From: Schmidtea polychroa
Lineage: Eukaryota
Direction: 5' to 3'
DNA length: 64,000 bases
NCBI GenBank assembly: GCA_044892525.1
Contig: CM097885.1
Location: 18,230,001-18,294,000, forward strand
Part shown: in pieces, positions 8,641 to 36,206 of the stretch
Numbering within the stretch: position 1 is the first letter of the stretch
How the letters are laid out: every line of letters begins with the position of its first letter
Notes under the pieces: model-generated
Databases searched by the model: none
The model's input: only the letters and a program-made list of their open reading frames with translations
Told to the model about the DNA's origin: nothing
Position numbers and translations under genes: made by a program

Positions 8641-8952
8641 TTACAAGCAGATGACCACATGAAATTATTGGTTAAATATGAAAATAAGGGTTATAATTAG
8701 TTGTTTAGTAAATTATGGTGTATAATTAAGTAATAAAGAATAATTAGGTAAATTAAAGTAATAATTTTTAAAAAAGTAAATTAAGGTTCAAATTTTAAAT
8801 TAAATAAGTAAATTAAAGTAATAATTTTTAAATAATTAATGTACTAAGTAAATTAAACTAAGATTTTTAAATTTATTATAAAAAGATTGAATAACCACCA
8901 ACTTTTTTGAGAAATGTAATTTATAATGGAAATTTAAATGGAAATTTAAATG

Positions 8953-9004
<52 letters not shown>

Positions 9005-11134
9005 TCAACAGTTACCAACAATCGGTTACTGATTATTTTTTAACTAGGTGCTAACAAATACTTACAACATGATACCACGTACTAACTAACTCTCAAACAA
9101 TCAGATACTTACAACTAGCTACTAAATATTCTTCACTGTATTTTATGAAATGCTTTTTAAATTAATTTTTTATCTATCTTCAAAAATATATTTAATTACA
9201 ATCATTAGAAAAACCTTTTCAAATTTAACAAAAATGATGATTTTCATCAAAAAACCACAACTCATCACCACGTGGAATTCAAAATAATTACAATGAAAGA
9301 CTAATGAATTCTAATTTACAAAACATTCTTCTTTTAAATGATAACTACTGACTTATTATTGCAATGTAAAAATCGCATTCAATAAATACTTATTGTTGAT
9401 CGGTTTTATTATATATACTCTGAGTTTATCCGACAGGATGTTTTGACCCCCTAAGGGTACAGGTCGTAAGGGTACTGGTCGTAAGGGTACTGGTCGTAAG
9501 GGTATTAGTCGTAAGGGTACTGGTCGTAAAGGTACTAGTCGTAGGGGTATTGATCACTCTTAATCCCCACCTACTCATTAATTAGCTACCATGTACTAAC
9601 CACTAGGTTTCAAACAACTAAATACTAAACACTTACAACCATGTACTAACAACCACCATCAAAACCCATCGAGAAATTAACAAATATCAACCTACAACTA
9701 GATACTTACAACCAGATACCTGCTACCAAGTACTTACAACAAGATACCAAGTACCAACAATCAACTAACCACACATAAAAATAATAGCAATTAAATACAA
9801 AATATTCTTCATCGCATACACTATTTTCTTATCAAAATCTAAAAAGTCAATCAGATACCAACTACCAAGTACCAAGTACTAACAACCAACTACCTAGAAC
9901 CAACAACTATGTACTAACAAATTGATCTTTAAAAGCAAATACTCTTCACTTGAAAAATTGGATGAAAAATTATTTGAACTCAAGGCATCAATAACTTGGT
10001 AAAAATTGATTAAATAATTGTAAAAATTTAAATTATTCAAAATAAATATCATAAAAATTTAATTAATGGACAAGAAAAAATTCTAATCATCCAATAAATA
10101 AAAAAAAATGCTGATCATTATCAAAGTCAGCAATCTACAATAAAAATAATTATCATTAAATTCCAAAAGAGACTAGATAACTAATGATAACATCTAACAA
10201 ACCAGTAAATTCATTCAAATGACAATAATTGGTATATCCAAGTGAATTCTCCAATAAAATCATCTAAAAAGCATCATTTTCTCCCTAAATATATCAATAT
10301 TTAAAGATTGGTATTTTAATGATAAGTACTTGTTAAAGATCATATATTCTCCTCAAACTAACAAGATTCCTTAAAATCCCCTTAAATGACTATATTTCAA
10401 CCCTTAATTCGTATTATTACAAATATTTCACTAAAATCATCTAAAAAGCATCAAATTTCCCTGAAATAACTATCTTTAAAGATTAGTATTTTATCGATAA
10501 ATATCCTTAAAAGGTTATATATTTACCTCAGACTAATAAGATTGCTTAAAATCCCCTTTAAATGACTTTAATTCCTATTATCACGAATATTATAAAACAT
10601 GTAAAATAATTTGGTCATTAACCCTAAATAATTGATAAAATCTAATGATAAAACCGGTTATAATTAAATTTTTGTTAATCACTGTACTCGAAATTTAAAA
10701 TAAATATAACTGACTAGGTCCCATTAAAAGATTAAATTTATCCATTCAATAAAATATATTTCTTCAAATGATCATTTTACCGATATTCAATCGATTTAAT
10801 TACTAATTAAAATCAATCGATAGATTTCTTTCAATAAAGATCAATTTTATTTAGTCGATGTTTTAAGTCCATATTTCTAAACTTTTGTCATTCTCCGTCT
10901 AAATAAAGATAAAAATAATTTAAAGTTGATATCAATCCCAATTATCTGTAAAGTTTTCATTGTCAAAACCAAGTAAATCGATCATTATCCTTACTTAATA
11001 ATCCATAAATCTAAATTAATATACAATGGATTAATCACAACCTAATAAAACGATATAATTATTATTGATTCATAACTGACTAATGTATTGCAATTTCCTT
11101 AAAAAACATTGATATTTTACCAACATCACCCTTA

Positions 11135-11380
11135 AAAAATCATATATTCCCATCGAAACCCTTCCCTCATTAAAAGCAATCGACTATATCCCCCTTACAA
11201 TCATATATTCCCATCTTAACCCATCCCTCATTAAATTCAATCGACTATATCTCCCTTACAATGATATATTCCCATCTTAACCCATCTCACATTAAATCTA
11301 ACCGACTATATCCCCTTAAAAGATCATATTTTCCCCATCTTAACCGATCACTCATTAAATCTCACCGACAATATCCCATC
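11135..11380. repeat. About 60-bp tandem repeat, roughly 4 units
   Basis: ATCATATATTCCCATCTTAACCCATCCCTCATTAAA...CGACTATATCCCCCTTA repeated; mirrored at about 15925-16170. Confidence 0.85.
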
Positions 11381-14300
11381 TTATCCGATCTCTCAGCAAA
11401 TATTTCTACCCTTTTAAACATCTATCCGATTATATCCCTTATTTTCCCTAAAGATTTCACCCACTTGAGCCCTTTAATATGTATCAATCCTCTTAAAATC
11501 CTCAGAGAACTTCAAAAATATGACTTTTAATTAATTGTTATAGAACCAGACAAATAATAAGAGCCCACTAAAAGATCAAAATTCACTAAATTTTCTACAA
11601 ATATATACCATCAAATACTGGAGATGATATATATTGATTGATCATAATTCTTCATCGATTCAGCCAATCATTTTCAAGCGCTATCAGCAAACTAAATTTC
11701 AGTATATTCTACAATCATTTTCAAGTAAATTTAAATTCCTTGTTAAAGTTAACTAGTTTCTTAGCTCATGTTTTTAAAAGTTCATCAATGAGTAAATATT
11801 CTTAGAAAATTATTGAAAAAATTATTTAGTGAAATATATTACAAACTTATCATTAAAAATTTATTCTATCACTTGAAATTAATTTTTATTTAAAAACTAT
11901 TCAATAAAATACCACTAATTATCAAGAAATTAATTAAATTTATCAATTAAATTTATCACCATTAAAACTTTTAATCAGTCAACATGAAATTCTTAGAAAA
12001 TTGTTCAATATCCTCATAAAAATTTATCCTACCACTTGATTATTGTACAAACTCTAATTATTAACCTCATTAAAAATTAAAAATACATCCAATTATCAAG
12101 AAATTAATTAAATTTATCTTAGAACTAACTTTGAATTATTAAATATTCATTCAATAATCATGAAATCCACAAAAATAATAGAAATTTACAAAAATCAAAG
12201 AAATTCACAAAAATGATAAAAATTCATGAAAATGATAGAAATTCACAAAAACGATAAAAATTCATAAAAATTATAGCAATTCGCAAAAATAATAGGAAAT
12301 TCACAAAAATGATAGATATCCACAAAAATTACAGATAATCAAAAAAATTACGGAAAATAATAGAAATCCGCAAAAATAATAGAAATTCACAATAAAAAAC
12401 GATAAAAATTCACAAAAAAGATAGAAATTTACTTGAATAAAACCATCAACTCTAAAAATTATGAATACCTTAAACAACAAATTTGCCTAAATAATCATTC
12501 AAATAAAAACATTAAATACCTTTACGACTAATACCCTTGCGACATGTTGAATGTGAGTAGTACCCTTGTGAGCAATACCCATAGGGGGACAGAATATTTT
12601 GTCGGATAAACTCAGAGTATATATTAATTAACTCATTTTTCATTGAATTAGTCAAATTATCATAAATTTCGATAAAAAATCTAAAGTGGTAAGCAATGTA
12701 AAGAGAAATATTCTTTAAACTTTGATAAAATTAACAATGAAGGTGGTAAGAATCTTCATTAAAGTGAGGAAATTACTCGATGATAAATTCAAATGGGTGA
12801 AAATAATTGGTAGAATAATTCATTAATGGAGGTAAATAATGAGAAGTGGCATAGATAAGAAGAAGGTTGATAAAAATGTAAATATATTAATTGAATTTAT
12901 TTAAAATTATTTCATAAAATTCATAAATTTAATAAAAAAACTTTTAAAACAAATATTTGTGGGGAATAATTAATCAAAATCGGGGGGATATTAGTGATTA
13001 ATTAATGGAAAATAGAGAATCGGGGAATACAAATGATTAAATAGTGGAAATTGGGGGAATATAGGAGATTAAATAGTGGGGTATTGAGAATCGGTGGAAT
13101 ATAAGTGAGAAGGATATGTAATTTAAACTATTTTATTACGTAACAAGCCATGACTAGTTTATTGCATAACAAGCTGTGAACGGGATTTTACCAACATTTT
13201 ACCTAGTATTGAATTTAATTTTTATTGTATTTTTAAATTGTATATATTTTCAATATCATTCTATTGTTTTATTCCAATAATAAGTTTAAAAAGTATATAA
13301 TGATTAATAAATTAATATCGTGTTAACATTTATTTGAGAATTTAAAAAACTTTACTTAAAATTTAGTGAAATATTTAATTTTGATTGTATTTTATAAGAC
13401 ATATATTTGAGTATTAACTTATTTTGATTGAAGTATTATATTCAATATTATGATGATTTTTTTTTCTAAATTAAAATATTTTAGTGTAAAATAGTAAATT
13501 TAATAATGAATAGAATACAATATTAAAGGACTTTTTAAAAAGAAAAATTACTTTCTATTACCTAATTCCATCATTAAGTTTAAGAAGTCTATAACTGTTA
13601 ATAAATCAATTTCTTATTCACATTTTCTTATAAAACTTATATTTTTAAATTAAGTGTAAAGAATTTAATTTTAATTGTATTTTATAAGTCATTTATTTGA
13701 ATATTTATCTTATTTTTATTGAAAGGAGTAATATAATTAATAATATGATAATTGTTTTTGAAATATTTAGTGTAGAATAATAAATTTATTAATAAATAAT
13801 TATTACAATATTAAAGGACTTATACAACAAAATTTTTGTCTTATTCCATAAAAAGTTTTAAAGTATATAACTGGTAATAAATTAATTTCTTATTTAAATT
13901 TATTTAAAAAAGCTTTACTTATAAAATTTATATTTTCGAAGACTTATATTTGAATATTAACTTATATTGATTGAAAAGGGTAATTGATTTAGAAATTAAT
14001 TAGTGTAAATCAAAACATTTAAATTATTAAGGTATTAAAGTACCTATTCAAAAATTTAAAAAAAAAAAAACCTAATCAATAATTTTCAATAAAATACTAT
14101 TCACAGCTTGTTATGTAATAAACTAGTCACGGCTTGTTATGTAATAAAATAGACGCGGCTTGTTACGTAATAAAATAGTTTAAATTACATATCCTTCTCA
14201 CTTATATTCCACCGATTCTCAATACCCCACTATTTAATCTCCTATATTCCCCCAATTTCCACTATTTAATCATTTGTATTCCCCGATTCTCTATTTTCCA

Positions 14301-17300
14301 TTAATTAATCACTAATATCCCCCCGATTTTGATTAATTATTCCCCACAAATATTTGTTTTAAAAGTTTTTTTATTAAATTTATGAATTTTATGAAATAAT
14401 TTTAAATAAATTCAATTAATATATTTACATTTTTATCAACCTTCTTCTTATCTATGCCACTTCTCATTATTTACCTCCATTAATGAATTATTCTACCAAT
14501 TATTTTCACCCATTTGAATTTATCATCGAGTAATTTCCTCACTTTAATGAAGATTCTTACCACCTTCATTGTTAATTTTATCAAAGTTTAAAGAATATTT
14601 CTCTTTACATTGCTTACCACTTTAGATTTTTTATCGAAATTTATGATAATTTGACTAATTCAATGAAAAATGAGTTAATTAATATATACTCTGAGTTTAT
14701 CCGACAAAATATTCTGTCCCCCTATGGGTATTGCTCACAAGGGTACTACTCACATTCAACATGTCGCAAGGGTATTAGTCGTAAAGGTATTTAATGTTTT
14801 TATTTGAATGATTATTTAGGCAAATTTGTTGTTTAAGGTATTCATAATTTTTAGAGTTGATGGTTTTATTCAAGTAAATTTCTATCTTTTTTGTGAATTT
14901 TTATCGTTTTTTATTGTGAATTTCTATTATTTTTGCGGATTTCTATTATTTTCCGTAATTTTTTTGATTATCTGTAATTTTTGTGGATATCTATCATTTT
15001 TGTGAATTTCCTATTATTTTTGCGAATTGCTATAATTTTTATGAATTTTTATCGTTTTTGTGAATTTCTATCATTTTCATGAATTTTTATCATTTTTGTG
15101 AATTTCTTTGATTTTTGTAAATTTCTATTATTTTTGTGGATTTCATGATTATTGAATGAATATTTAATAATTCAAAGTTAGTTCTAAGATAAATTTAATT
15201 AATTTCTTGATAATTGGATGTATTTTTAATTTTTAATGAGGTTAATAATTAGAGTTTGTACAATAATCAAGTGGTAGGATAAATTTTTATGAGGATATTG
15301 AACAATTTTCTAAGAATTTCATGTTGACTGATTAAAAGTTTTAATGGTGATAAATTTAATTGATAAATTTAATTAATTTCTTGATAATTAGTGGTATTTT
15401 ATTGAATAGTTTTTAAATAAAAATTAATTTCAAGTGATAGAATAAATTTTTAATGATAAGTTTGTAATATATTTCACTAAATAATTTTTTCAATAATTTT
15501 CTAAGAATATTTACTCATTGATGAACTTTTAAAAACATGAGCTAAGAAACTAGTTAACTTTAACAAGGAATTTAAATTTACTTGAAAATGATTGTAGAAT
15601 ATACTGAAATTTAGTTTGCTGATAGCGCTTGAAAATGATTGGCTGAATCGATGAAGAATTATGATCAATCAATATATATCATCTCCAGTATTTGATGGTA
15701 TATATTTGTAGAAAATTTAGTGAATTTTGATCTTTTAGTGGGCTCTTATTATTTGTCTGGTTCTATAACAATTAATTAAAAGTCATATTTTTGAAGTTCT
15801 CTGAGGATTTTAAGAGGATTGATACATATTAAAGGGCTCAAGTGGGTGAAATCTTTAGGGAAAATAAGGGATATAATCGGATAGATGTTTAAAAGGGTAG
15901 AAATATTTGCTGAGAGATCGGATAAGATGGGATATTGTCGGTGAGATTTAATGAGTGATCGGTTAAGATGGGGAAAATATGATCTTTTAAGGGGATATAG
16001 TCGGTTAGATTTAATGTGAGATGGGTTAAGATGGGAATATATCATTGTAAGGGAGATATAGTCGATTGAATTTAATGAGGGATGGGTTAAGATGGGAATA
16101 TATGATTGTAAGGGGGATATAGTCGATTGCTTTTAATGAGGGAAGGGTTTCGATGGGAATATATGATTTTTTAAGGGTGATGTTGGTAAAATATCAATGT
16201 TTTTTAAGGAAATTGCAATACATTAGTCAGTTATGAATCAATAATAATTATATCGTTTTATTAGGTTGTGATTAATCCATTGTATATTAATTTAGATTTA
16301 TGGATTATTAAGTAGGGATAATGATCGATTTACTTGGTTTTGACAATGAAAACTTTACAGATAATTGGGATTGATATCAACTTTAAATTATTTTTATCTT
16401 TATTTAGACGGAGAATGACAAAAGTTTAGAAATATGGACTTAAAACATCGACTAAATAAAATTGATCTTTATTGAAAGAAATCTATCGATTGATTTTAAT
16501 TAGTAATTAAATCGATTGAATATCGGTAAAATGATCATTTGAAGAAATATATTTTATTGAATGGATAAATTTAATCTTTTAATGGGACCTAGTCAGTTAT
16601 ATTTATTTTAAATTTCGAGTACAGTGATTAACAAAAATTTAATTATAACCGGTTTTATCATTAGATTTTATCAATTATTTAGGGTTAATGACCAAATTAT
16701 TTTACATGTTTTATAATATTCGTGATAATAGGAATTAAAGTCATTTAAAGGGGATTTTAAGCAATCTTATTAGTCTGAGGTAAATATATAACCTTTTAAG
16801 GATATTTATCGATAAAATACTAATCTTTAAAGATAGTTATTTCAGGGAAATTTGATGCTTTTTAGATGATTTTAGTGAAATATTTGTAATAATACGAATT
16901 AAGGGTTGAAATATAGTCATTTAAGGGGATTTTAAGGAATCTTGTTAGTTTGAGGAGAATATATGATCTTTAACAAGTACTTATCATTAAAATACCAATC
17001 TTTAAATATTGATATATTTAGGGGGAAAATGATGCTTTTTAGATGATTTTATTGGAGAATTCACTTGGATATACCAATTATTGTCATTTGAATGAATTTA
17101 CTGGTTTGTTAGATGTTATCATTAGTTATCTAGTCTCTTTTGGAATTTAATGATAATTATTTTTATTGTAGATTGCTGACTTTGATAATGATCAGCATTT
17201 TTTTTTATTTATTGGATGATTAGAATTTTTTCTTGTCCATTAATTAAATTTTTATGATATTTATTTTGAATAATTTAAATTTTTACAATTATTTAATCAA

Positions 17301-18301
17301 TTTTTACCAAGTTATTGATGCCTTGAGTTCAAATAATTTTTCATCCAATTTTTCAAGGGAAGAGTATTTGCTTTTAAAGATCAATTTGTTAGTACATAGT
17401 TGTTGGTTCTAGGTAGTTGGTTGTTAGTACTTGGTACTTGGTAGTTGGTATCTGATTGACTTTTTAGATTTTGATAAGAAAATAGTGTATGCGATGAAGA
17501 ATATTTTGTATTTAATTGCTATTATTTTTATGTGTGGTTAGTTGATTGTTGGTACTTGGTATCTTGTTGTAAGTACTTGGTAGCAGGTATCTGGTTGTAA
17601 GTATCTAGTTGTAGGTTGATATTTGTTAATTTCTCGATGGGTTTTGATGGTGGTTGTTAGTACATGGTTGTAAGTGTTTAGTATTTAGTTGTTTGAAACC
17701 TAGTGGTTAGTACATGGTAGCTAATTAATGAGTAGGTGGGGATTAAGAGTGATCAATACCCCTACGACTAGTACCTTTACGACCAGTACCCTTACGACTA
17801 ATACCCTTACGACCAGTACCCTTACGACCAGTACCCTTACGACCTGTACCCTTAGGGGGTCAAAACATCCTGTCGGATAAACTCAGAGTATATATAATAA
17901 AACCGATCAACAATAAGTATTTATTGAATGCGATTTTTACATTGCAATAATAAGTCAGTAGTTATCATTTAAAAGAAGAATGTTTTGTAAATTAGAATTC
18001 ATTAGTCTTTCATTGTAATTATTTTGAATTCCACGTGGTGATGAGTTGTGGTTTTTTGATGAAAATCATCATTTTTGTTAAATTTGAAAAGGTTTTTCTA
18101 ATGATTGTAATTAAATATATTTTTGAAGATAGATAAAAAATTAATTTAAAAAGCATTTCATAAAATACAGTGAAGAATATTTAGTAGCTAGTTGTAAGTA
18201 TCTGATTGTTTGAGAGTTAGTTAGTACGTGGTATCATGTTGTAAGTATTTGTTAGCACCTAGTTAAAAAATAATCAGTAACCGATTGTTGGTAACTGTTG
18301 A

Positions 18302-18365
<64 letters not shown>

Positions 18366-18669
18366 CATTTAAATTTCCATTTAAATTTCCATTATAAATT
18401 AAATTTCTCAAAAAAGTTGGTGGTTATTCAATCTTTTTATAATAAATTTAAAAATCTTAGTTTAATTTACTTAGTACATTAATTATTTAAAAATTATTAC
18501 TTTAATTTACTTATTTAATTTAAAATTTGAACCTTAATTTACTTTTTTAAAAATTATTACTTTAATTTACCTAATTATTCTTTATTACTTAATTATACAC
18601 CATAATTTACTAAACAACTAATTATAACCCTTATTTTCATATTTAACCAATAATTTCATGTGGTCATCT

Positions 18670-20130
18670 GCTTGTAAGTGTTTGGTATCTAGTTGACAGT
18701 GCTTATTACTAGGTAAGTTACTTGGTTGTTAGTACTTGGTATCTAGTACCTGGTTGATGTTGGTTGTATGTACTTGGTATCTAGTTGTTAGTAACTAGTT
18801 GTAGGTAATTAAAGCTTAGTAGTTGGTAACTGGTTGTTAGTACTTGGTAGTTAGTAGCTAGTTGGTTGTATGTACTTGGTATCTAGTTGTTAGTAACTAG
18901 TTGTAGGTAATTAATGCTTAGTAGTTGGTAACTGGTTGTTAGTACTTGGTAGGTGGTAGCTAGTTGGTTGTAGGTACTTAGTAGTTGGTTGATAATGCTT
19001 AGTACTTGGTAGGTGGTTGTTAGTTGGTTGTAGGTACTTAGTAGTTGGTAATTAATGCTTAGTACCTGGTTGATGTTAGTTGTAGGTACTTAGTAGTTGG
19101 TAGCTAGTTGGTTGCTATCAGGTAACTAGTTGTTAGTAACTAGTTGTAGGTATCTGGTTGTTAATACATGTTCGTAATTTACTGGTACTTGGTATCTAGT
19201 TGTTAGTTGTTAGCGGGTTGTTAGTAACTAGGTATCTAGTTGTTAGTACTTGGTTGATAATGCTTAGTACCTGGTTGATGTTGGTTGTTAGTACTTGTTA
19301 GGTGGTAGCTAGTTGTTAGTAACTAGTTGTAAGTACTTGGTATCTGGTTGTTAGTTGTTATCTGGTTGTGAGTACTTGGTAGCTAGTTGTTAGCTGGTAG
19401 TTAGTACTTAGTATCTAGTACCTAGTTGGTTGGTTGTTAGTACTTAGTATTTAGTTGGTTGTAGGTACTTAGTAGTTGGTTGTTGTTGGTTGTTAGTACT
19501 TGGTAGGTGGTTGGTTGTAGGTACTTAGTAGTTGGTTAATAATGCTTAGTACCTGGTTGTTGTTGGTTGTGAGTACTTGGTATCTAGTTGTTAGTTGTTA
19601 GCTGGTTGTTAGTACTTGTTAGGTGGTTGTAGGTACTTGGTAGGTACTTGGTAGTTGGTAATTAATGCTTAGTACCTGGTTGATGTTGGTTGTTAGTACT
19701 TGGTAGGTGGTTGGTTGTAGGTACTTAGTAGTTGGTTAATAATGCTTAGTACCTGGTTGTTGTTGGTTGTGAGTACTTGGTATCAGGTAACTGGTTGTTA
19801 GTATCTAGTTGTAAGTACTTGGTAGTTGGTTGTTAGTTGTTGGTATCAGGTTGTAAGCTGGTTGATAGTACTTGGTATCTGGTAATTAGTTGTAAGTACT
19901 TGGTTGTTTGAGAGTTATTTAGTACGTGGTATCTAGTAGTTAGCTGGTTGTAGCTAGTTAATGGGTAGGTGGTTGTTAGTAGTTGGTATCAGGTAACTAG
20001 TTGTAGGTATCTAGTTGTAGGTATATGGTATCAGGTAACTGGTTGTTAGTAACTAGTTGTAGGTATCTGGTTGTTAATACATGTTCATAAGTTACTGGTT
20101 GTTGGTACTAAGTTGTTGGTTTGTTGTTGA
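18670..20130. repeat. Mirror copy of the strand-skewed minisatellite
   Basis: Reverse complement of 7190-8640. Confidence 0.9.
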
Positions 20131-20549
20131 ATTATTATTAAAATTTGTCTTTGAAAAATATTTCATAAAAATTTTCATTAAAAATTATCTTAAAAATTTC
20201 CATCTAAAATTATCATTGAAAAATATTTCATAAAAATTTCCATCTAAAATTATCATTGAAAAATATTTCATAAAAATTTCCATTAAAAATTACTTAAAAA
20301 ATTATTCCATAAAAATTTCCATTAAAAATTACCATTGAAAAATATTTCATTAAAATTTCTATTAAAAATTACTTAAAAATTATTTCATAAAAATTTTCAT
20401 TAAAAAATTTCAATTCTCAAACACCTTCTATTATTTTGTAATTAAATTTTAAAATCTTACTTTAATTTACTTATTACATTACTTTAATTTACTTATTTAA
20501 AAATTATTACTTTAATTTACTTATTTAAAATTTTTTACCATTGATTACT

Positions 20550-21345
20550 TAATTTAAAAATTTGGACCATTATTTACTGTAATTTAATTTTTTAGGACCA
20601 TAATTTACTTTAATTTAATTTTTAGAACCATAATTTACTTTAATTCAATTTTTAGAACCATTATTTACTTTAATTTAATTTTTAGAACCATAATTTACTG
20701 TAATTTAATTTTTAGACCATAATTTACTGTAATTTCAATTTTTAGACCATAATTTACTGTAATTTCAATTTTTAGAACCATAATTTACTTTAATTCAATT
20801 TTTAGAACCATTATTTACTGTAATTGAAAAATTTGATCCATAATTTACTTTAATTTAATTTTTTAGGACCATAATTAACTGTAATAGAAAAATTTGGACC
20901 ATAATTTACTGTAATTTAATTTTTTAGGACCATAATTAACTGTAATAGAAAAATTTGGACCATAATTTACTGTAATTTAATTTTTTAGGACCATAATTTA
21001 CTTTAATTTTAAAATTTGGACCATTATTTACTTTAATTGAAAAATCTGGACCATTATTTACTTTAATTTAATATTTTAGAACCATAATTTACTTTAATTT
21101 AATATTTAGAACCATAATTTACTTTAATTTAAAAATTTGGACCATAATTTACTGTAATTTAAAAATTTGAGCCATAATTTACTGTAATTTATTTTTTAGG
21201 ACCATAATTTACTTTAATTTAAAAATTTGGACCATAATTTACTGTAATTTAATTTTTAGGACCATAATTTACTGTAATTTAAAAATTTGAGCCATAATTT
21301 ACTATAATTTAATTTTTTAGAACCATTATTTACTTTAATTGAAAA
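20550..21345. repeat. Mirror copy of the 30-bp minisatellite, roughly 26 units
   Basis: Reverse complement of 5641-6770 with fewer units. Confidence 0.93.
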
Positions 21346-22179
21346 ATTTACCACGTTTTCTAGTGTAGACCACCTATTTCTCAGGACCATCGAGACCCCC
21401 TCACTATAGTGTGAAAAATCCATGCTTTTTTATTGAAGACCGCCTTTTTGTATTGAAAAAATTTTGTATTGAAAATCCCCGGACCATCGAGACCCCCTCA
21501 CTATAGTGTGAAAAATTGCGTAATCAAAAGTTGCAACAAAAAAATTACGGCAACAAAAAAAAGTTGCAACAACCCCCCCCCGGGGGGGGGGGGGTAATTG
21601 TTGCCGTAAGCCACTATCTACCTACTTATTATAACGAAAACCAATTAATTATAAATATTTATTATACATGTGTATATACATTAATATTTAAAATTTCTTT
21701 ACTCCGTATTTATTAAACCTAAGTTCAGAGTTTTGATCATTAAGTTTCTATTAAGGTTACTATTATAATATATTTGAGAAGATCAAGTGATCAACTTTAA
21801 CATTTAACATTGAATTCTAAATAAAAGAAATTAAAGATTATCATCAATTGTCCTTCCTTTTTTCAAAAGATTTTCAAGATTTTTCTAGGCTAAGTAGCAT
21901 TTTCTATGCTCAAAACTGTTTTCATGATCAGCCATCTTCGGATTTAGTCGCCCGTTTGCAAAAACCTTTAGATATACCAGCAAAACAGTTTTGTTTTAGT
22001 TTAACTTCTGAAAACAGTAAACATGGAAACCAGAATATAAAAATTTAATATGAAAAAAAGAAAGAAAAGCAAAAAAAATTTAAATGATCATTTCACAGTT
22101 TTGGCGCCCTTCGACTCGGCGCCCGGGCGGTCGCCCCATTCGCCACCCCCTAGATACGACTCTGCTTTCCATAATCGGT

Positions 22180-24040
22180 TTAGTTCTCTGCTGACTTCAC
22201 TAAACATACAGAGATAGTTAAACTTCCGTCGGCGGTGAGTTCCATGACGATCCCCAGGCGGCGTCTAACAAGCGTTTCGGAAATTCCATGGACCCGCATT
22301 TGGCTTTCATTATTCAGGACTGTTCGTAACCAGCTTGCTACCGTGGCCGAGTCCACCATCAACTTGATTCTCTTAATTCCCCATTGTATTGACAAGTTGA
22401 TAACCTTAAGCACCGAGTCAAGTTCTGCAACATTTATATGAGAGTGGTCATCGGGTTTTCTGAGCCACGAAGCATCCTCAACAACATCATCATTTATTAC
22501 CAGCAGAACCCCTAGGGCGAGACTACTCGCATCACACCACAGAACCCCGCAATCACTATTAGTTACCGTCCATCTTCCCTTGACCGGGTCGCTTGTTTTA
22601 ACACGAGTGATCACTTCTGCCAGCTTCGATTCGCATTCTTTTCCAATTAACTCATCCTATTTAGCTCCCATTGCAGTCTTTTTAATATAACTGCACGCCA
22701 CTGTGAGCCACCCTGCGACTGGATAATGTCCAACCAGCTTACGGAATATAGAGAACAGCGTACGACGAGTGATTTCACTTGTGTTTGCATCGACATCTTT
22801 TCCCCTGATCCATGACAGGTGGCCTACATGATCACGTTTTATTCTTTATCCTTTGCGTTTTTTATTGATTCTGCTGGCTTTGTGGTCAGGCCGTATTGAG
22901 CTAAGTGATTCACGACCTCGTCAATTTGAACTTTGCCTGTGTCTACAGCGATGTCATCAATGTAGTGATCTGTCGCATCTTTGATTCTGGGGTGGAGGCT
23001 TAACACTTTTCTGAGCACTCGAGACATTATTTTTGGAGCACAGTTGAGGCTGAATCCCAATCTTGCTAAGTAATACAACTTACATTTGTATCGAACTTTT
23101 GGTATTCCCAAAGTTCTTCGCTGACATGTAACTGCAAATAGGCATTCTTTAAATCGAGCATTACCACTTGATCTCCCATTTGTCGTCATTTTTTTAAACT
23201 TTCACCACACACATTACTGTCACCGGTGTGACTCTTATCGTAATTATTGAGATCTCTAAACTCAAAAACCGGTCGGACTTTTCATTTGTTTTCTTGCACT
23301 GCTGCTAGCAAGGGCAAGATACCATGATCGTCGCTATTCGCCGGAGTCAACCAGTCTTCCTTGATCCAGCACTCGATCTCCTTTTCGTACTCCTGTCGTA
23401 TTTCTGGTTTTACTGCATATTCTGCGACAAGGTTTTTCAGCAAGGCAGGCTTATCTCTCCACTTCCAGGACATGGTCCATTTGTTCCCGTCGATTGACGC
23501 TAAAAAATCGTCATCTTCAATTTTTACTTGGTTCTGCTTCACGGTCTTTACTGATGAGACATCACATCCACCAAATTGCACTTCTTCATTATTGATCCGA
23601 ACGCCTCCAAGAAGTCCTATTGCATCAAATCCCAGAACAATGTTGACTCCTGCTTCGAGATTTTTTTATTATTAAACAATTTACCATGACACATGATCAC
23701 CGCACGGATATTCTGAATTAACTCTCCTTCGCAAGCCACTCTAAGACCGTCTACAGATATGATGTCCATGGTTTCGCCTCTATCTCTCGCAAGCCTGTTA
23801 TGCAATCGTTTGGAAGCATCCGGAATCAAATAATCCAACGCACCACTTTCCATTCACCTTGAGCTTGACTATCACCTGCGCCATTCCCGACGTTATAGAG
23901 AAATCACTGGCGCTACAGTTTCTCTTCTGGCGTTTCCCTGCGATCTTTTTGGACATTGTCTGGATGAGTGCCCTGTGTTCCCGCATGTCACACATTCTTG
24001 CATGGGACATTTGTTCACGTAGTGACCCGGTCTCCGATCG
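22180..24040 (-). mobile_element. Degenerate Ty3/Gypsy-like gag-pol fragment (Zn knuckle, protease, RT, RNase H)
   Basis: CVTCGNTGHSSRQC (23893-24126), LFDSGC (23798-24010), RLGFSLNCAP...YIDDI (22839-23189), WCDASSLALG...HINVAELD...VDS (22180-22614); several frameshifts; no LTRs seen. Confidence 0.88.
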
Positions 24041-25014
24041 CTAAGAAAATGAAACCATTTTCGGACGGAGAATTTGTAAAAGAATATTTGGCAGCTGTTA
24101 TAGAAGACGTTATGCCAGATAAACATAAAATGATTTCAAGCATAAGTTTGTCGCGTCAAACAATTTGTTGTCGCATTAATGATATTTCAGATGAAATAGT
24201 GGTGACTTTACGAGAGCGGATTCAACAATTCAAAGCATATTCTCTAGCTTTCGACAAAGTACAGTTATTTCAGATACATCACAACTAGCTGTATTTATTC
24301 GTGGCGTTAACGATTCTTTCAGAATGACACAAGAAATGTTAAATTTGAAATTTGAAAGACACCACTAGAGGAGGGGATGTTTTCACGCTATAAAAAAATA
24401 TTTATCCTGGAATTCTTTACATTTAGAGACTAGACTAACAACGGATGGTGCGCTTGCTATGATTGGTAAAAATAAAGGAACTGTAAAGTTGTTTATGGAT
24501 GAACTTGAAGCTTCATCTGTTAAACCAAGTGAAATATTTGTAATACACTGTTTGATACAATTTATGTGCCCAGGTATTGTCCATGAACCATGTCATGGAT
24601 GTGGTAATAAAAACAATTAACTATATTCGATCAAATGCGCTTCAGCATCGCAAGTTCAAAGTATACCTTGACAAATTAAGTTCGGAATACGGCGATATTG
24701 TCTATTTAACTAAAATTAGATGGTTGAGTCGCGGAACATGTTTAAAAAAATATTTTGAATTACGGGTGGAAATAGAAAATTTTATGGCTGAAGAGAGAAA
24801 TTCAGCTTCAAATTTAAATGGCGAAATGTGGTTGTTGGACATGTGTTTCTTAGTAAATATAACCGAAAAAATTAACCAGATAAACAAGGAGATACAGGGG
24901 CAAGATAATTTAATTATTGATGCTTGTAATCATATCAAAGCATTCCAAACCAAGCTAATTTTATTTGAGTCCCAACTTAGAAATAACAATCTTCCCACAC
25001 TCGTGCTTTGTTGA
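24035..25014 (+). pseudogene. Degenerate hAT (Buster/SPIN, GTF2IRD2-like) transposase fragment
   Basis: KPFSDGEFVKE, SLSRQTI, YSLAFD, TTDGA, HC, INYIRSNALQHRKF, RWLSRG across frameshifted ORFs. Confidence 0.9.
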
Positions 25015-25349
25015 TTGCAAATTTTCGACTGTTTGGTTTGTCCGTCGTATTTTAAAATCTAAGAAGGATTTACCTTTTAGATTAAATTGCTCGGGTTGAA
25101 ATTTTGGGTAATTGATAATGATTTAAATTCGCTATTTATATTATTTTCTGCGTCTTTCTTACTATTAAAATTAAATTAATATTTTTTAAGTGCTATTATT
25201 TGTTATTATTATTTGCATCATAAATATTTAAGTGTTATATTATCTTAGAGTAGTATGATTGGAGCTCCCCAGACCAGGAGCTCCCCGCGCCACATATACC
25301 CCCTCCCCCCCCCGGGAAAAAAAAATTTTTTTTTTTTAATTTTTTGTTT

Positions 25350-26420
25350 TAATTAATTGGCCTGGCGGGCTCACACTTTTTTTCATCCCAAAAATTAATG
25401 TTCTCGTTAACAGATTTTATTGACCGATACCTCATCTTAAAGCACAGTCCAAGACCTTTCGAATGAGCTATAGGTATCATATATATCTTTAATAGTTTTA
25501 ATGTTATTAACAATTGATGACCACCATCTTTTCAACGTTAAATTATTATTATTTTCCAAAATATTATTAATTGGCCTGGCGGGCTCACACTTTTTTTCAT
25601 CCCAAAAATTAATGTTCCCACCAACGGATTTTATTGGACGATACCTCATCTTAAAGCTCAGTCCAAGACCTTTCGATTGATCCATAGAAGGTATCATCAT
25701 CATTAATATTGACAAAGTTATTAACAATTGATGACCACCATCTTTTCAACGTTAAATTATTATTATTATTCAAAATATTATTAATTGGCCTGGCGGGCTC
25801 ACACTTTTTTTCATCCCAAAAATTAATGTTCCCATTATCCGAATTTATTAATCGATAGCTTATTTTGAAGCGTAGTCTAAGACCTTTCAATTGAGCCATA
25901 GAAGGTATCATCATCATTAACATCGGCAAAGTTATTAAAGTTTTACCGAGACCATTTTTCAAGGTCATTTATTTTTTCAAGGTCATTTATTTTTTCAAGG
26001 TCATTTATTTTTTCAAGGTCATTTATTTTTTCAAGGTCATATTTTAAAATTTAAATGTACAGAGTTCCCGACAACGATAATTATTCAACGATAGCTCATT
26101 TTAAAGCCCAATGCAAGATCTTTCGATTGATTCATAGAAGGTATCATCATCATTATTATTGACAAAGTTATTAACAATTGATGACCACCATCTTTTCAAC
26201 GTTAAATTATTATTATTATTCAAAATATTATTAATTGGCCGGGCGGTGACATACTTTTTCTCATCCCAAAAATTAATGTTCCCATTATCCGAATTTATTA
26301 ATCGATAGCTTATTTTGAAGCGTAGTCTAAGACCTTTCAATTGAGCCATAGAAGGTATCATCATCATTAACATCGGCAAAGTTATTAAAGTTTTACCGAG
26401 ACCATTTTTCAAGGTCATTT
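25350..26420. repeat. About 214-bp tandem units carrying five dyad-symmetric sites; mirrored at about 37030-38110
   Basis: TTAATTGGCCTGGCGGGCTCACAC recurs at about 25353, 25567, 25781 and (variant) 26231. Confidence 0.9.
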
Positions 26421-26585
26421 ATTTTTCAAAATATTATTTTCAAGGTCAAGGTCAAGGTCATTTATTTTTTCAAGGTCATTTAATTTTTAAATAAAAGGTC
26501 AAGGTCATTTATTATTTTCAAGGTCATTTATTTTTTCAAGGTCATTTATTTTTTCAAGGTCATTTATTTTTTCAAGGTCATTTAT
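25955..26585. repeat. 18-bp TTTTCAAGGTCATTTATT arrays (two blocks: about 25955-26040 and 26405-26585)
   Basis: Seen directly; mirrored at about 36880-37040 and 37405-37510. Confidence 0.92.
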
Positions 26586-26611
26586 TATTTTTTAAGTTTT
26601 TAGTTTCTAAG

Positions 26612-26663
<52 letters not shown>

Positions 26664-26835
26664 ATTATAGTTATAATTATAATTATTATATACTCCTAGT
26701 CTATCCGACAAGATATTCTGTCCCCCTATGGGTACTGCACACAAATGTACTACTCACACTCAACAAGTCACAAGGGTACTGCTCACACTCAATATGTCGT
26801 AAATTATTATTATTATTATTTCAAATACAAGTTCA

Positions 26836-26875
<40 letters not shown>

Positions 26876-27240
26876 TATTATTACGCGCACGGGGAATATT
26901 ATTGTCATATATACTCTTAATCTATCCGACAAAATATTCTATCCCTTTATGGGTATTGCTCATATGGGTAATGGTCAAAGGTGTACTACTCACATTCAAC
27001 ATGTCTCAAAGGGTATAATATAATTATTATTAAATTCTGACCAACTTAAATCAATGAAGGGGTAGAACAAAAATATATTAAGTTGCGGTATTTTAAATTT
27101 AAAAATATTTTAAAAACTTATTTTGACACTAAAGTTTACTTAATTAACAAAGACATAATTATTGCACATGCTTTGCATAAATATTATTATTATTTTTTTA
27201 ATTTTCAATATTTTCTTTTAAAGTATTAACACGCGCGGGA

Positions 27241-27314
<74 letters not shown>

Positions 27315-27318
<4 letters not shown>

Positions 27319-27827
27319 GTTAATGAAAAATCTAAAATATGGTTTACACACACAACCCCTCAACCATTATTATTATTATCAATATCAAAAACCTAAAATA
27401 TTTTCTACACACACACACATGCACAACTCATTAACCATTATTATTATCATTATTAGTGAAAACCTAAAATATTTTTTACACACACACACAACCCATTAAC
27501 CATTATTATTATTATTATCAATATTAAAAACCTAAAATATTTTTACACACACACATACAACTCATTAAACTTATTATTATTATTATTATTATTGCAAATA
27601 TTAGTCAAAAACCTAAAATATTATTTACACTCACACAACCCATTAACAATTATTATTATCAATATTAGTGAAAACCTAAAATATTTTCTACACACACACA
27701 CAACCCATTAACCATTATTATTATTGCAAATATTAGTCAAAAACATAAAAACACTCATAAACCATTATTATTATCAATATTCGTGAAAACCTCAAATATT
27801 TTTTACACACACACACAACCCATTAAC

Positions 27828-27884
<57 letters not shown>

Positions 27885-27920
27885 CAATATTAGTGAAAAA
27901 ACCTTAAATAATTTTTACAT
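27315..27920. repeat. About 65-bp minisatellite (AAAACCTAAAATATTTT..ACACACAC..AACCCATTAACCATTATTATT); mirrored at about 35530-36135
   Basis: Seen directly. Confidence 0.9.
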
Positions 27921-30900
27921 ACTAAGTTATGGGGTAGAGTATTATTATGTTTGCAGTATTCTGTGTTTGCCTTTACAGGAAGTTGTCAATAATTTTACAC
28001 ACACATTCTATATACACATACCTTGTTTAACATGGGTGTATATACTCCTAGTCTATCCGACAAAATATTCTGTCCCCCTATGGGTATTGCTCACAAAGGT
28101 ACTACTCACACTCAACATATCGCAAGGGTATATTAATTATGGTTAGTAAATAAAACCTATCACACACACTTTAATATTTAAACGAAAAAAAATCAAGACA
28201 AGAGAGGACAAGGCAAAGTTAATGCATTTAGTATTGCCAGGCCTAATGAGCAGTGACCAAATATCTGTGCCTGAAAGACACGGTGGATATTTGTTCGCGT
28301 CCACAAGGGTCGTCTGTGCCTCCCCCAAGTGGGGTCAGGAGAACCTGGGCATTATAGCTTTCCGTACGGAACATTACGCCTAGCATGGGTAGTCAACTAC
28401 CAGCACATTCGAAACGTATAATTTCAAAATACATGCGTCATTGGCACTATAACCAAATTAATTAATGTTTTCACTAACACAAAAATATATTTACAGAGGC
28501 CTCCCACTAGTTGGATTACAACCGCCCACCACGACGATCAGCTTGTAAATATATATTAATTAAGGGATAAAGAGGACCCACCCAACCCTATTATATTTAA
28601 TTTACAAATTTTTCTCGCTCTTCTGTTGGTATTCTATCTCAAAATTATCATCTCCATCGGGCCATTTGGAATACATCTTGCAAATTGGACGTATTTCTTA
28701 GTTTCTGATGCGGCGTCCACTATCATTGCTAAAATTTATATTGATTTAAAAGCAATTAACTTACATTATCTAACATTTTATCATCACAGGCTTGATAAAT
28801 TAGGCAACTGTTATTTGTGGTATACTTTTTCAATGTCATTTCCCACCATAAAACACAGATACCTAAATATAATATATATATATATTTTAAAAGATTAATT
28901 CATGTCTTACATTAATAATAATATTCTTCAGGTATGACGAGTACTTTACTTAATTGCTAAAACGTCGATTTTTCCCATTTTTCTTGACATTTGTTGAAAG
29001 TTTACATAATTTAAGTCTGATAATTCATGTTGAAGGACACCCACAATCAGCTAATTCATTTAAGAAATCCAGAACATAGCAATGTTTCACCATTTTATCT
29101 GGTTCATCTTCTTCATAATTATATAATTCATTTTCTTCATTACTAAGTAAATTAATTAAAATATTGTAGTAAATTCTTTATTTACTTACTTTATGGATAC
29201 TAAAACGAAAGAAATAAAGTTATATCAAAAGTATATTTAAATAAATTAAATTTAAATAATTTAATTTAGTTATTTAAAAATATTTAAACAATTTAGTTAT
29301 TTAAGCATATTTAAACATTAACATTATTATATAGTATAATTTTATATAATATTATAATTTTATGTACACTTATATATCCTTCATTTAATTTTTTAAATTC
29401 AAAATTTATAATGAAGATTCTTTGAATTAAAAAATATTCTGTTAGTATTTCCAGGCAGTAAACAACGAATTCAATAATTAAAATCTTAATTTTCATGTTG
29501 TTAGGGTTGTGGCCAGAATTTAATCGCCATCTAATCGTTTGTTCTCAATTTCGCTCATTTTTGTTCAAAACATTCAGGTGAGTTGTTATCTGGAAAGTTT
29601 CTTTGAGCTCAGTTTTGTTAAAACACTCACGGTATTTTTGAGGGACATGACACTGGGAATAAATTAACAATGGGTGGTCTTGCATACATGTTGTTGGTTT
29701 GAACTGTTGATTTATTTTAGAAATATGTATATTAAAAACATTTAAGGTATCATTCAGTAAAATAATATAGTATTTTTGAGTATTTTTAGTTGATTTATAA
29801 ATAACAGTATTTTGATATATCAATAAAGACCATATACTCCTAGTTTATCCGACAAAATATTCTGTCCCCCTATGGGTATTGCTAGCAAGGGTACATCTCA
29901 CATTCAACAAGTCGCAAGGCTATATTAATCATTTAGAAATTCTTAGGTAATTTAGTGAGATGATCAGAAATTCGTGAATATTTTAAATGTAACTTTACAC
30001 TTATGTCGAGCGACTAATTTATTGGTTAACTTTGTAGTCATTTAAAGCAAAAATTAATTTATTCATCTAATGTTCGTTACAATAGTTAATAATATGAGAA
30101 AAACATGGTCATTATTCATTGATAATTTTAAATTCTTTATCATTTGGAGTAAATTTGTTTGAGGCAAAAATAATTAAAGGAGTCATAATAGAAATATGGT
30201 TATCATTTATCCAATTAAGGGGCCTATTATTTAGAAATATATATTATAAAGTAACAATTATTTTCTAATTTAATTAGATGATCATTAGACGTAATATATC
30301 TTTGCGAGAAATTTAAGATGTTTGAGTAACCAAAACATGGACATTTTGTGCGATAAATTTATGAATATTGCTTAATTTTGTTATTTTTAGTCATTTAAAA
30401 TAATATTTAGCAAATGTAATTTAGCAAAATATCATTTATCCACCCGATAACAATATTCCTTCAATAGATTAACTGATATTCAACCTATTTAATTTCTGGA
30501 AATATAATTAAAATCATAAATTTCCTTCATGAAAGTTAAATTTTCTTTAGTTGTCGATGTCTAACTCTTTTAAGTCAATATTTTTGTTACCGTTATCTTC
30601 ATAATGAATGTCCGTCTTTAAAATGTTAAATAAAATAATTTAAAGCAATAACCTTTGATATCAATTATCTCTAAATATTTCAAATATTGCATTGTCAAAA
30701 CCAAGTAAATTAGTCATTACCCATTAATAAAACCGTGGATAATTAATAAAAACTGGTTCTGAAACATAAATTACTGTGCAATAACATTCATCACAACCTC
30801 TAAAACGATATAATTTCACAGGAACTATTCATAGCTGACTATTTCCCTTGAAAATTTGATATTTTACCAATAAGAATATATAAATATTCAAAACATTAAC

Positions 30901-33900
30901 CGATCCCTCACCAAATATCTTTACCCCTTAAAACACCTTAAATCGTATATATTACCATCTTAACCTTCACTAAATCCAACCGAATATAATTTCATCCACT
31001 TGTGCCCTTTAATAAATCTTAAAATCTATAGAAAATTCTTCAAAATATGAATTTTATTTAATTGTCACAGACATTCTTCCATTGAAATAATTTAGTAGCT
31101 AAATTCAAAGAGTCCACTAAAAGATCAAAATTCATTAAAATAAATATTTAACCACATGTGTCATCAAATACCTAACTAGAGATGATAATATCTCATTGAT
31201 TGATCATAATTATAACCATTATAACATGATATATCTTTCAAACTAAATTTAGGTATATTTTACAATAATTTTCAAGTAGATTTCAAATATATCATCATCG
31301 TGAAAAAATTAGATTGTTTCAACTTTAGATTTTCAATATTTTAAAGTTCATCAATGTGTAAATATTCTTAGAAAAATATATGAAAAAATTATTTAGTCAA
31401 ATTATCATTACAAAGTCATCATCATCATCAAAATTAATAAAATATAGCAAATTATCAAGAAATTAATTAAATTTATCTTAGAATTAACACTAAACCTTAA
31501 ATATTCTTTCAATTAACATGAAATTCACAAAAAAATATTAGTAAAATCCCGCTAACTCTAAAAAATTACCAATGAATTTAATGCCAAATAATAACCAAAT
31601 ATTTGCCTAAATAAAATCATTAAAACACACCAGTACCTTTACGACCAGTACCCTTACGACCAGTACCCTTACGACCAATACCCTTACAAGCAGTACCCAT
31701 AGAGGGAGAAAATATTTTGTCGGATAAACTCCGAGTATATATAATAAAACGAATTAACAATAACTCCATCAAATTGAATCAGTCAAATTATCACAAATTT
31801 TAATAAAAAATCTTATTCTAAAGTGGTAAGCAGCGTAAAATCGAAAGATAATTTTAATAACACAGAGATAAAATTAACAATATTATTCTCAGGTGGTAAG
31901 AATCATCATTATTCTATGATTAATTAATAATGAAATTCAAAAAGGTGAAAATAAGGGTTTGAATTATTCATTAATGGAACGTAAATGTAAATATACCGAG
32001 AAGTGTCATAGATAAGATGGAAATATATTAATTGCATTTATTTAAAATTATTTCATGAAATTCATAAAAATTTATAAAAATGATCACTTTAATAAAAAAA
32101 AAATATTTAATTCAATGTTCAAAGAAATAGTTGTTGGGAGGATTAGTGGAAAATGGGGGGCTATAAGTGATGAGTATTTATAAATTATTTCTAATATATG
32201 AGTGACTAACGAATAATAATAATGTGATAAACAATTATTTTGATAAAGTATTTAATCCAAAAATGACAAACATACATAACAAATGGTATTTGACTAAGCA
32301 ATTATGATAACTTTATATTTTAAATTTTGATTAACTCCTTTAATATTGAATTAATAATTATGAGATTTACTATTTTACATTAAATATTTCAAAAACAGTT
32401 ATTCTAAAAGATAATTTAAGATACATTACTCTTTTTAATCAAAATAATCTCTCAAAGTTAAGAAGGAAACAAAGTGTGTCAGAACACATACCCAGCATTA
32501 ACTTTACTTAAATTTATGAAAACATCAAGTAAGCAATGATAATAGAGGGATAACAGACTCAAAAATAAAATATTATTCTCAGGTGGTAAGAATCTTCATT
32601 AAAGTTAGGAAATTATTTATTATTCTGTGATAAATTAATAATAAACTTCAAAGGGGTTAAAATAAGTGTTAGAATAATTCATTATTGGATTATGGAAGGT
32701 TAATGAAAATATACTGAGAAGTGGCATGGATATATATTAATTGTATTTATTTAAAATTATTTCATAAAATTCATAAATTTCATAAAAATTCATAAAAAAC
32801 GTTCACTTTAATAAAAAAATATTTAATACAATTTTAAAGGAAATATTTGCCAGGAGAATATAACCAATAAATTAGTCGCTCGACATAAGTGTAAAGTTAC
32901 ATTTAAAATATTCACGAATTTCTGATCATCTCACTAAATTACCTAAGAATTTCTAAATGATTAATATAGCCTTGCGACTTGTTGAATGTGAGATGTACCC
33001 TTGCTAGCAATACCCATAGGGGGACAGAATATTTTGTCGGATAAACTAGGAGTATATGGTCTTTATTGATATATCAAAATACTGTTATTTATAAATCAAC
33101 TAAAAATACTCAAAAATACTATATTATTTTACTGAATGATACCTTAAATGTTTTTAATATACATATTTCTTAAATAAATCAACAGTTCAAACCAACAACA
33201 TGTATGCAAGACCACCCATTGTTAATTTATTTCCAGTGTCACGTCCCTCAAAAATACCGTGAGTGTTTTAACAAAACTGAGCTCAAAGAAACTTTCCAGA
33301 TAACAACTCACCTGAATGTTTTGAACAAAAATGAGCGAAATTGAGAACAAACGATTAGATGGCGATTAAATTCTGGCCACAACCCTAACAACATGAAAAT
33401 TAAGATTTTAATTATTGAATTCGTTGTTTTCTGCCTGGAAATACTAACAGAATATTTTTTTTAATTCAAAGATTCTTCATTATAAATATTTGAATTTAAA
33501 AAATTAAATGAAGGATATATAAGTGTACATAAAATTATAATATTATATAAAATTATACTATATAATAATGTTAATGTTTAAATATGCTTAAATAACTAAA
33601 TTGTTTAAATATTTTTAAATAACTAAATTTAAATTATTTAAATATAATTCTGATATAACGTTATTTCTTTCGTTTTAGTATCCATAAAGTAAGTAAATAA
33701 AGAATTTACTAAAATATTTTAATTATTTTACTTAGTAATGAAGAAAATGAATTATATAATTATGAAGAAGATGAACAAAATGGTGAAACACTAAATGACT
33801 TATGTTCTGGATTTAGAGATTTCTTATTAAAACATGAATTATAGAAGAAAATGAACCAGACAAAATGGTGAAACATTGCTATGTTCGGGATTTCTTAAAT

Positions 33901-35568: not shown

Positions 35569-35622
<54 letters not shown>

Positions 35623-36131
35623 GTTAATGGGTTGTGTGTGTGTGTAAAAAATATTTGAGGTTTTCACGAATATTGATAATAATAATGGTTTATGAGTGTT
35701 TTTATGTTTTTGACTAATATTTGCAATAATAATAATGGTTAATGGGTTGTGTGTGTGTGTAGAAAATATTTTAGGTTTTCACTAATATTGATAATAATAA
35801 TTGTTAATGGGTTGTGTGAGTGTAAATAATATTTTAGGTTTTTGACTAATATTTGCAATAATAATAATAATAATAATAAGTTTAATGAGTTGTATGTGTG
35901 TGTGTAAAAATATTTTAGGTTTTTAATATTGATAATAATAATAATAATGGTTAATGGGTTGTGTGTGTGTGTAAAAAATATTTTAGGTTTTCACTAATAA
36001 TGATAATAATAATGGTTAATGAGTTGTGCATGTGTGTGTGTGTAGAAAATATTTTAGGTTTTTGATATTGATAATAATAATAATGGTTGAGGGGTTGTGT
36101 GTGTAAACCATATTTTAGATTTTTCATTAAC

Positions 36132-36206
<75 letters not shown>

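Follow-up and report, generated by a model that had tools for sequence, protein, structure and literature searches.

A non-coding core shared by gene-less fold-back elements with different Polinton-type ends in Schmidtea polychroa

Protein-primed, strand-displacing replication is known from adenovirus and phi29, and the same mode of replication is a model, with little direct support, for Polintons (also referred to as Mavericks). Non-autonomous Polintons that are non-coding and have Polinton ends as well as target-site duplications (TSDs) of 6 bp were reportedly described by Kapitonov and Jurka in 2006, and palindromic template-switch products of phi29 are said to have been described by Esteban et al. 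in 1997. The hallmarks of Polintons are terminal inverted repeats (TIRs) starting with AG(T) and a 6-bp TSD (PMC8097293); an expansion of Mavericks has been reported in planarians, in the accessible text without their structure. Here, we describe two elements, A and B, in a window of 64,000 nt from Schmidtea polychroa (assembly GCA_044892525.1, contig CM097885.1, positions 18,230,001 to 18,294,000, forward strand; coordinates below are those of the window), and compare them with stretches elsewhere in the AT-rich 781-Mb host genome, which carry L-numbers. A and B share a non-coding core and have the ends of two different Polinton families; on balance, they are probably satellites that borrow the enzymes of these helpers and gain or renew their ends by recombination with them.

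Both elements (Table 1) have TIRs starting with AGTAG and a 6-bp TSD, and both lack autonomous Polinton genes: A has no ATG-initiated open reading frame (ORF) of at least 100 aa, the only such ORFs of B, within the TIR repeats, encode 105 aa, and tblastn of 20 Polinton proteins against halves of A, B and an element with a third type of end (C, see below) gave no match. The arms (5079-13179 and 14127-21626 in A; 25249-30028 and 32861-38225 in B) differ in repeat numbers, and those of A are 100% complementary over 8913-13179. Of the B loci, 10 of 11 have matched TSDs, as do 8 of 12 A loci and the single C locus, and these TSDs differ between the many dispersed copies. By eye, a small element whose ends are GC-rich and inverted, with a repeated flank, also seems to surround A (4911-4960 and 22100-22170), and an Rfam search over 9000-33000 gave only a weak SRP RNA match in a B arm (28451-28542; 30 bits, E 2e-4, gathering score 70).

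A sequence-only reading of the window had proposed that the interiors of A and B are colinear, as marked by short anchors, and six exact-string searches place these where they had been reported, one shifted by one base: at 10958/30690, 11565/31114, 11777/31343, 12091/31450 and 12681/31818 in A and B, respectively, with an extra A copy of the 12091 anchor at 11917, and with CATAGATAAGA, part of the last anchor, at 12850 in A and 32007 in B. Colinearity is borne out by blastn, which aligns A 10736-12938 with B 30434-32080 at 65-72% identity (the stretch around a ~100-nt module being A 12473-12938 and B 31593-32080), and by a local alignment, which scores 848, versus 223 for the reverse complement and 337 ± 15 in 10 block shuffles. 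When four A cores are aligned jointly with four B or C cores, cross-group identity is 75.8% in 942 gapless columns and the longest exact run is 28, as opposed to 52.0-55.5% and runs of 7-9 in reversed, complemented and reverse-complemented controls. We prefer the blast blocks and multiple alignments to the pairwise A/B alignment, which loses register inward of 11.9 kb owing to the 19-bp array of A. The outer kilobases, as had been stated, are unrelated except for the module: once masked for microsatellites, A 5079-10100 and B 25249-29800 share a single 54-nt match, which lies within it. The homology also extends to the centre, a point overlooked in the sequence-only reading, the A spacer (13471-14067) matching B 32312-32447 in reverse at 71-80%.

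The two elements are drawn from a larger set. Four end types (A, B, C and D) are found, each matching a separate coding Polinton family of the same genome (PA, PB, PC and PD), in line with the earlier suggestion of a shared ancestor with different ends and different helper Polintons. Satellite ends match those of their own helpers at 83% (A-PA), 82-91% (B-PB; L082, L118 and L119 for the window copy), 92-93% (C-PC) and 76-88% (D-PD). As for other helpers, the A end has no match in the TIRs of PB, PC or PD, the B end matches PC at about 70% and PA not at all, and the C end matches PB at 68-69%. With helpers and satellites pooled, the genome holds 58 exact A ends, 92 exact B ends (781 with a degenerate pattern), 340 C ends and 300 D ends; polymerase genes number at least 91 (91 scored of 8821 candidates). 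The PA helper (L067/L068) is 16.9 kb long, with A's end, a matched TSD, a polymerase, a split integrase and an A32-type ATPase, and a TBP-like domain (PF00352, E 5e-16) is encoded beside its TIR (L068, 6727-7239). PB helpers are coding elements with B's end, whose 427-aa product is likely a double jelly-roll capsid protein, with an Atlas score of 0.98 to double jelly-roll clusters and a recognition value below the threshold of the tool. Of 20 C-ended stretches, 11 are coding and lack a core and five are gene-less with two or three cores; of 19 D-ended stretches, 10 are likewise coding and lack a core. The helpers are themselves mosaic: the ATPase and integrase of PC and PD agree at 93-100% of four-fold sites, their polymerases at 43% (L163, L169 and L178 versus L121 and L122). 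An apparent chimera was rejected: L124, considered as a direct swap of a PC end and a PA polymerase, has a PA-type end nested inside a C TIR. Another, L071, considered as an A core with an end of a further type, PE, is provisionally taken as a neighbouring insertion.

The core is no transposon in its own right. That it might be one, perhaps bounded by two inward-facing modules and inserted separately into A and B, had been named beforehand as what would refute the sequence-only reading, and it draws on abundance (the anchor common to A and B has 1404 exact genome matches, the module 8684), on modules that face one another across the core and on one module that lies within a short insertion of a polymerase gene. 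It is nevertheless very improbable: of 40 core-anchored loci (10 from a core-piece search, 30 from the first 100 anchor matches), 39 have homology that runs on outward, to satellite arms or to the TIR of a Polinton, and the remaining one (L154) is a lone 0.5-kb fragment; the A-B homology crosses the inner module into the spacer and ends 0.6-1.3 kb short of the outer modules; and no TSD surrounds the module pair in A or B. Two specific identities were likewise discarded, that of a TIR transposon or miniature inverted-repeat transposable element, there being no fixed ends of its own with their own TSD outside host elements, and that of a decayed Polinton gene, there being no tblastn match; the 40 of 88 tblastx matches listed for the core are to the module, repeats or flanking satellite. 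The core matches helpers only at the module and at microsatellite-like repeats. All 11 PB loci, all nine PC loci and six of the 10 PD loci have the module, whereas the 16 PA- or PE-type stretches with helper DNA only lack it (one match lay in an adjacent A element), and it occurs twice per arm in A, with the best match, at 94%, to a PB copy. It is also seen in an insertion of about 385 nt (830-1215) in the PD-type polymerase gene beside A, within inverted 15-bp repeat arrays around an ATT microsatellite; this copy is 95-96% identical to the PC/PD TIR module, and a TSD was not seen. The gene itself is 94-96% identical to polymerases of D-ended copies, with a PD end upstream in L079.

Cores have been exchanged between B-ended and C-ended elements. 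In trees built from copies with both probes in range (92 rows, then 51; a separate comparison kept 9 of 16 representatives), C-ended cores nest within B-ended cores (51 rows), and a single clade of B-ended cores is rejected by the approximately unbiased (AU) test (p 3.9e-7; 30 B-ended rows versus 21), the grouping by end having been set before the test and after the first, 92-row tree. B-ended cores are not one clade; A cores are. Three B-ended copies (L084, L098 and L114) are like window B up to about 30.4 kb and C-like inward, and in a fourth (L093) the change comes near 30.9 kb. The identity of D-ended cores to C cores is 93-94%, and the D satellite end aligns to C-type ends over only 5-6% of its length. 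Two different end variants occur in 4 of 10 B loci with matched TSDs. One A-B mosaic (L042) runs from an A arm into B interior, an A TIR repeat and B interior again, and then breaks off.

Recombination between helper and satellite has also given half-and-half elements that multiplied. A junction in which an ATT microsatellite is joined to satellite spacer is present in 28 copies, and all 10 hybrids sampled consist of a PB half (ATPase, integrase and the 360-aa and 427-aa genes, about 99% identical in aa) and a satellite half, which is 79-99% identical to window B; of the nine with both ends found, eight have a matched TSD. One hybrid of the same design (L165) has D ends. Polymerase-less hybrids are seen in L181-L200, L013/L014, L086, L101, L105, L081 and L165, the multiplied family having at least 28 copies.

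The proposal that termini were swapped holds between B and C and between helpers and satellites. For A versus B, we infer that a swap is likely and rank end replacement above co-divergence: core similarity is 74-77%, despite four-fold sites at chance level in helper polymerases (PA versus PB 63/186, chance 31.8%) and capsid genes (31/90, chance 34.4%), as also in the comparison of PA with PB/PC, and A has two modules per arm, with PB-like sequence, despite the lack of the module in PA- and PE-type helper DNA. Several observations weigh against such a swap. No clean A-ended element with a B, C or D core, nor the reverse, occurs in the 40 core-anchored loci or the end-anchored samples, and the A cores are a single clade in a core tree, (A,(B1,(C,D))), shaped like the capsid-gene distances, where PA is furthest, followed by PB and then PC-PD. 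Core rates are uneven (odds ratio 2.2-2.5), and the core may therefore be as old as the PA/PB split; four-fold sites of the ATPase and integrase are not fully saturated between PA and PB/PC (40-53%). Under co-divergence, one ancient satellite would have split along with its helpers, with a slow, selected core and with ends drifting in step with helper TIRs; A and B would never have swapped ends, and exchange would be confined to the close families B, C and D. Besides the single A clade, this is favoured by core distances (C-D 0.065, B1-C 0.127, A-B 0.29-0.33) that rank like capsid-gene four-fold identities (PC-PD 84%, PB-PC 71%, PA 34-36%) and by the tendency of A-variable columns to vary in B, C and D also (p 0.0006). 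We regard it as possible but rather unlikely, as a large invariant class misfits (the core cannot be fitted by a model in which about 65% of sites are invariant, and columns invariant in both groups still differ by 15-16% between A and B), the link of rates between groups is partly a G+C effect, the module is present in A although missing from PA and PE ends, polymerase distances rank otherwise (PB-PC 64%, PD-PC 43%) and exchange is demonstrably common wherever visible.

Arm boundaries confirm that the core is doubled in A and single in window B. The single core in the B spacer is homologous to the duplicated arm core of A, as had been read, but it is not the state of the B family, and, in the case of A and B, the proposed growth of TIRs has the wrong polarity: a doubled core is usual among B copies, and window B has been shortened as a one-off. 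A 901-nt piece of the B core has at least 40 matches of about 100%, many as inverted pairs (40 of 3056 candidates scored). We sampled 40 stretches that begin at left ends of B type (37 with paired ends, picked sequentially among the first 100 listed, and three others; two long pairs, the window and one locus already in the set were left out), and found 17 gene-less stretches with a doubled core, three gene-less with a single core, four with Polinton genes joined to a core, 13 coding without a core in range and three with neither. The doubled-core B1 junction has 225 genome copies, the window B junction one. Eight of 10 end-anchored A copies fold at 13174-13190 and two elsewhere, and a single core is seen in L049/L050; D-ended satellites show the opposite state, with one core in all six gene-less core-bearing stretches. 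Single versus doubled core is thus a copy-level trait inside each family and not a family marker. Window B itself likely arose by deletion from a B1/B2 chimera with a doubled core, like L011/L012 in type, because its core equals L011's left core, the segment at 32577-32861 is 99.6% identical to L012 (98-99% to B2 copies) and its junction is microhomologous.

Many distinct centre junctions, with microhomologies of 2-9 nt, were found by eye; L015 and L017 have one shortened junction in common under different TSDs, and some shortened forms therefore moved after they had arisen. Among the 36 elements that have a single forward core and a single reverse core, these two agree at 99.4% or more in 33. 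That the palindromes are merely assembly artefacts of fold-back reads, as arms of up to 100% identity might suggest, has a negligible probability, since matched 6-bp TSDs vary by locus, one junction recurs 225 times and the arms differ in repeat numbers. In L135, a PC polymerase gene contains a snap-back with a 9-nt loop. Both arms include part of a polymerase in the palindromes of L135 (3528-7632), L095, L077/L078 and L124; in L077/L078 and L124, the fold surrounds a small B-ended insertion upstream of a PA polymerase, and at least five inverted polymerase pairs are present among the polymerase matches listed. In L029/L030, L031/L032 and L177, the palindrome continues past the element ends into the flanks, with inverted 6-mers, as larger fold-backs or assembly errors. 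Paired A ends (n=18) span 15.5-17.9 kb, near the 16.9 kb of the helper, which would fit, and does not prove, a packaging limit.

How such elements might arise can be pictured by analogy with protein-primed replication. The terminal protein and polymerase of a helper would begin synthesis from the borrowed end, displacing one strand; if a strand folded back through the pairing of a few bases, it would copy itself and yield a palindrome whose arms are identical; if synthesis switched to a different molecule, often at an ATT microsatellite, the core would be joined to a new end or half; the integrase would insert the product with a 6-bp TSD; and deletions across the centre, in free DNA or in the chromosome, would shift the fold-back point, window B being one such deletion. 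Judged from the ends and TSDs, helper polymerase and integrase likely act on the satellites in trans. We infer by analogy that template switching in protein-primed replication may be the source of exchange; copy-back, which the sequence-only reading had invoked, would be compatible with the snap-back in a polymerase gene. The core is likely retained because it carries a cis-signal, for which the module would be the best candidate; such a role is unsupported, and this counts against our proposal, as six DNA folds of the module do not beat shuffles (z -0.4 to +1.1), which led us to reject it as a folded unit, and the Rfam search over 9000-33000 gave no match to it.

The microhomologies of 2-9 nt also tell against this proposal, being equally compatible with chromosomal end joining, and the mosaics and shifting fold-backs could instead be of chromosomal origin, by ectopic recombination, gene conversion and end joining of cut palindromes. 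The unique junction of window B, the short microhomologies, one junction with a small templated duplication, three loci with palindromes extending into the flanks, and comparable TIR dynamics in the cut-and-paste transposon Galileo (PMC3573991) all fit such an origin. As a general explanation it is nevertheless quite improbable, since a single crossover of inserted copies gives mismatched flanks, whereas the chimeras mostly have matched TSDs, and since new junctions multiplied later (225 copies, 28 copies and the L015/L017 junction); it may still explain single copies such as window B. Replication-borne exchange could also be taken further, to a multi-helper satellite system of animal Polintons in which an ancient non-coding core moves, through the capture of ends, between helper lineages, at least four in number, the polymerase and integrase that act on it depend on the end, the core or module is a packaging signal tracking the capsid lineage, and palindromes with only a polymerase and hybrids with capsid and integrase but no polymerase make up for what the other lacks, as the segments of a split virus do; taken jointly, these proposals are speculative and, in our view, doubtful.

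The remaining features of the window lie mostly outside A and B. Two intronless amidase genes (PF01425; 41313-43270 and 52466-54426) are 96% identical, the second broken by a stop; a hAT-like transposase ORF of 654 aa lies at 57559-59523, with a decayed look-alike, by eye, to the left of B (24050-25014). A GIY-YIG fragment (38877-39200), a reverse-transcriptase-like remnant (22180-23700) and a perfect 120-nt self-complementary stretch (45913-46032) are also present. Another Polinton starts near the right edge (62296-64000), and L080 has a polymerase match and an AGTAG end at 9484.

Table 1. Coordinates of elements A and B, their parts and the neighbouring polymerase gene in the window
Feature	Position	Strand	Remarks
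Broken protein-primed polymerase gene of a PD-ended Polinton, neighbour of A	32..3128	-	PF03175
Element A, fold-back, without genes, 16.5 kb	5079..21626		ends AGTAGG; TSD TATTAT at 5073-5078 and 21627-21632
A left end, TIR of coding Polinton family PA	5079..7187	+	mirror ~20130-21626; 83% whole-length to L067
A outer module with 15-bp repeats	9350..9549	+	inverted copy of core inner end; 79% to B 31812-31629
Shared non-coding core, left copy in A	10736..12960	+
Module within A core	12517..12628	-	motif of PB, PC and PD TIRs, not in PA TIRs; best match 94%, PB TIR module
A spacer, 947 nt	13180..14126		homologous to the spacer in B copies with a doubled core
Shared core, right copy in A	14350..16570	-
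Element B, fold-back, without genes, 13.0 kb	25249..38225		ends AGTAGT; TSD TCTTAG at 25243-25248 and 38226-38231
B left end, TIR of coding Polinton family PB	25249..26798	+	mirror ~36660-38225; terminates in ATT microsatellite and module
68-bp repeat block in B	27241..27922	+	resembles non-coding stretch behind PB capsid-like gene; 65-88% to L118, L091
Shared core, sole copy in window B (subfamily B1)	30434..31903	+	identical to left core of L011
Spacer of doubled-core B1 form, in B	31903..32577	+
Subfamily B2 segment in B	32577..32861	+	direct repeat of 31886-32133; trace of B1-to-B2 switch
Centre junction of window B	32849..32879	+	3-nt microhomology; joins right arm at 30028 equivalent

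Gene-less Polinton derivatives are known as a kind; what is new here is one core under four helper ends and its exchange among the closer families and with a helper. To our knowledge, neither a core under several helper end types nor multiplied helper-satellite hybrids have been described for non-autonomous Polintons, and the literature yielded no description of a core common to Polinton end types, although subscription journals, Repbase entries or preprint supplements may hold one. The genome offers hundreds of probable natural products of Polinton replication, from fold-back junctions and chimeras integrated in one piece to a core under four ends, which correct the view of single versus doubled core as a family marker, point to the cis requirements (the ends and probably the module) and suggest how an element that parasitizes a virus-like one can pass to another helper. 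A and B resemble Polintons in their AGTAGT or AGTAGG ends, 6-bp TSD and length of 13-18 kb (PMC8097293, PMC6431247), and the helpers are Polinton-like in encoding a polymerase, an integrase, a packaging ATPase and a likely double jelly-roll capsid protein. Unlike Polintons, A and B are non-coding, their arms measure 4.8-8.1 kb compared with 46-1,447 bp for vertebrate TIRs (PMC8097293, PMC6431247) and their interior core, the module excepted, is absent from the helpers examined. As in the snap-back defective genomes of adeno-associated virus (AAV; PMC8235507) and, reportedly, in the palindromic phi29 products, an end is duplicated by fold-back and a helper would be needed, but such products are short-lived helper pieces, whereas the interior of A and B is mostly non-helper and old, and the elements integrate and form families of hundreds; only in polymerase-bearing palindromes, such as L095 and L135, is the interior derived from the helper. 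Long repetitive TIRs, chimeric copies and subfamily exchange are shared with Galileo and Foldback (PMC3573991), although Galileo relies on a P-element transposase and cut and paste and has no protein-primed polymerase or capsid (PMC3573991), and a DDE identity of the Foldback/Galileo type was rejected here, the coding elements with these ends being Polintons and not P-element or Mutator relatives. Finally, the replication and morphogenesis modules of polisuviruses reassort, much as the helpers here are mosaic (bioRxiv 10.64898/2026.10.13.758929), and polymerase-less Polintons with cargo stay mobile, as do the hybrids described above (bioRxiv 10.1101/2025.02.07.637071); the accessible text of both preprints concerns coding modules or transposon cargo, in contrast to the non-coding, palindromic satellite of this genome.

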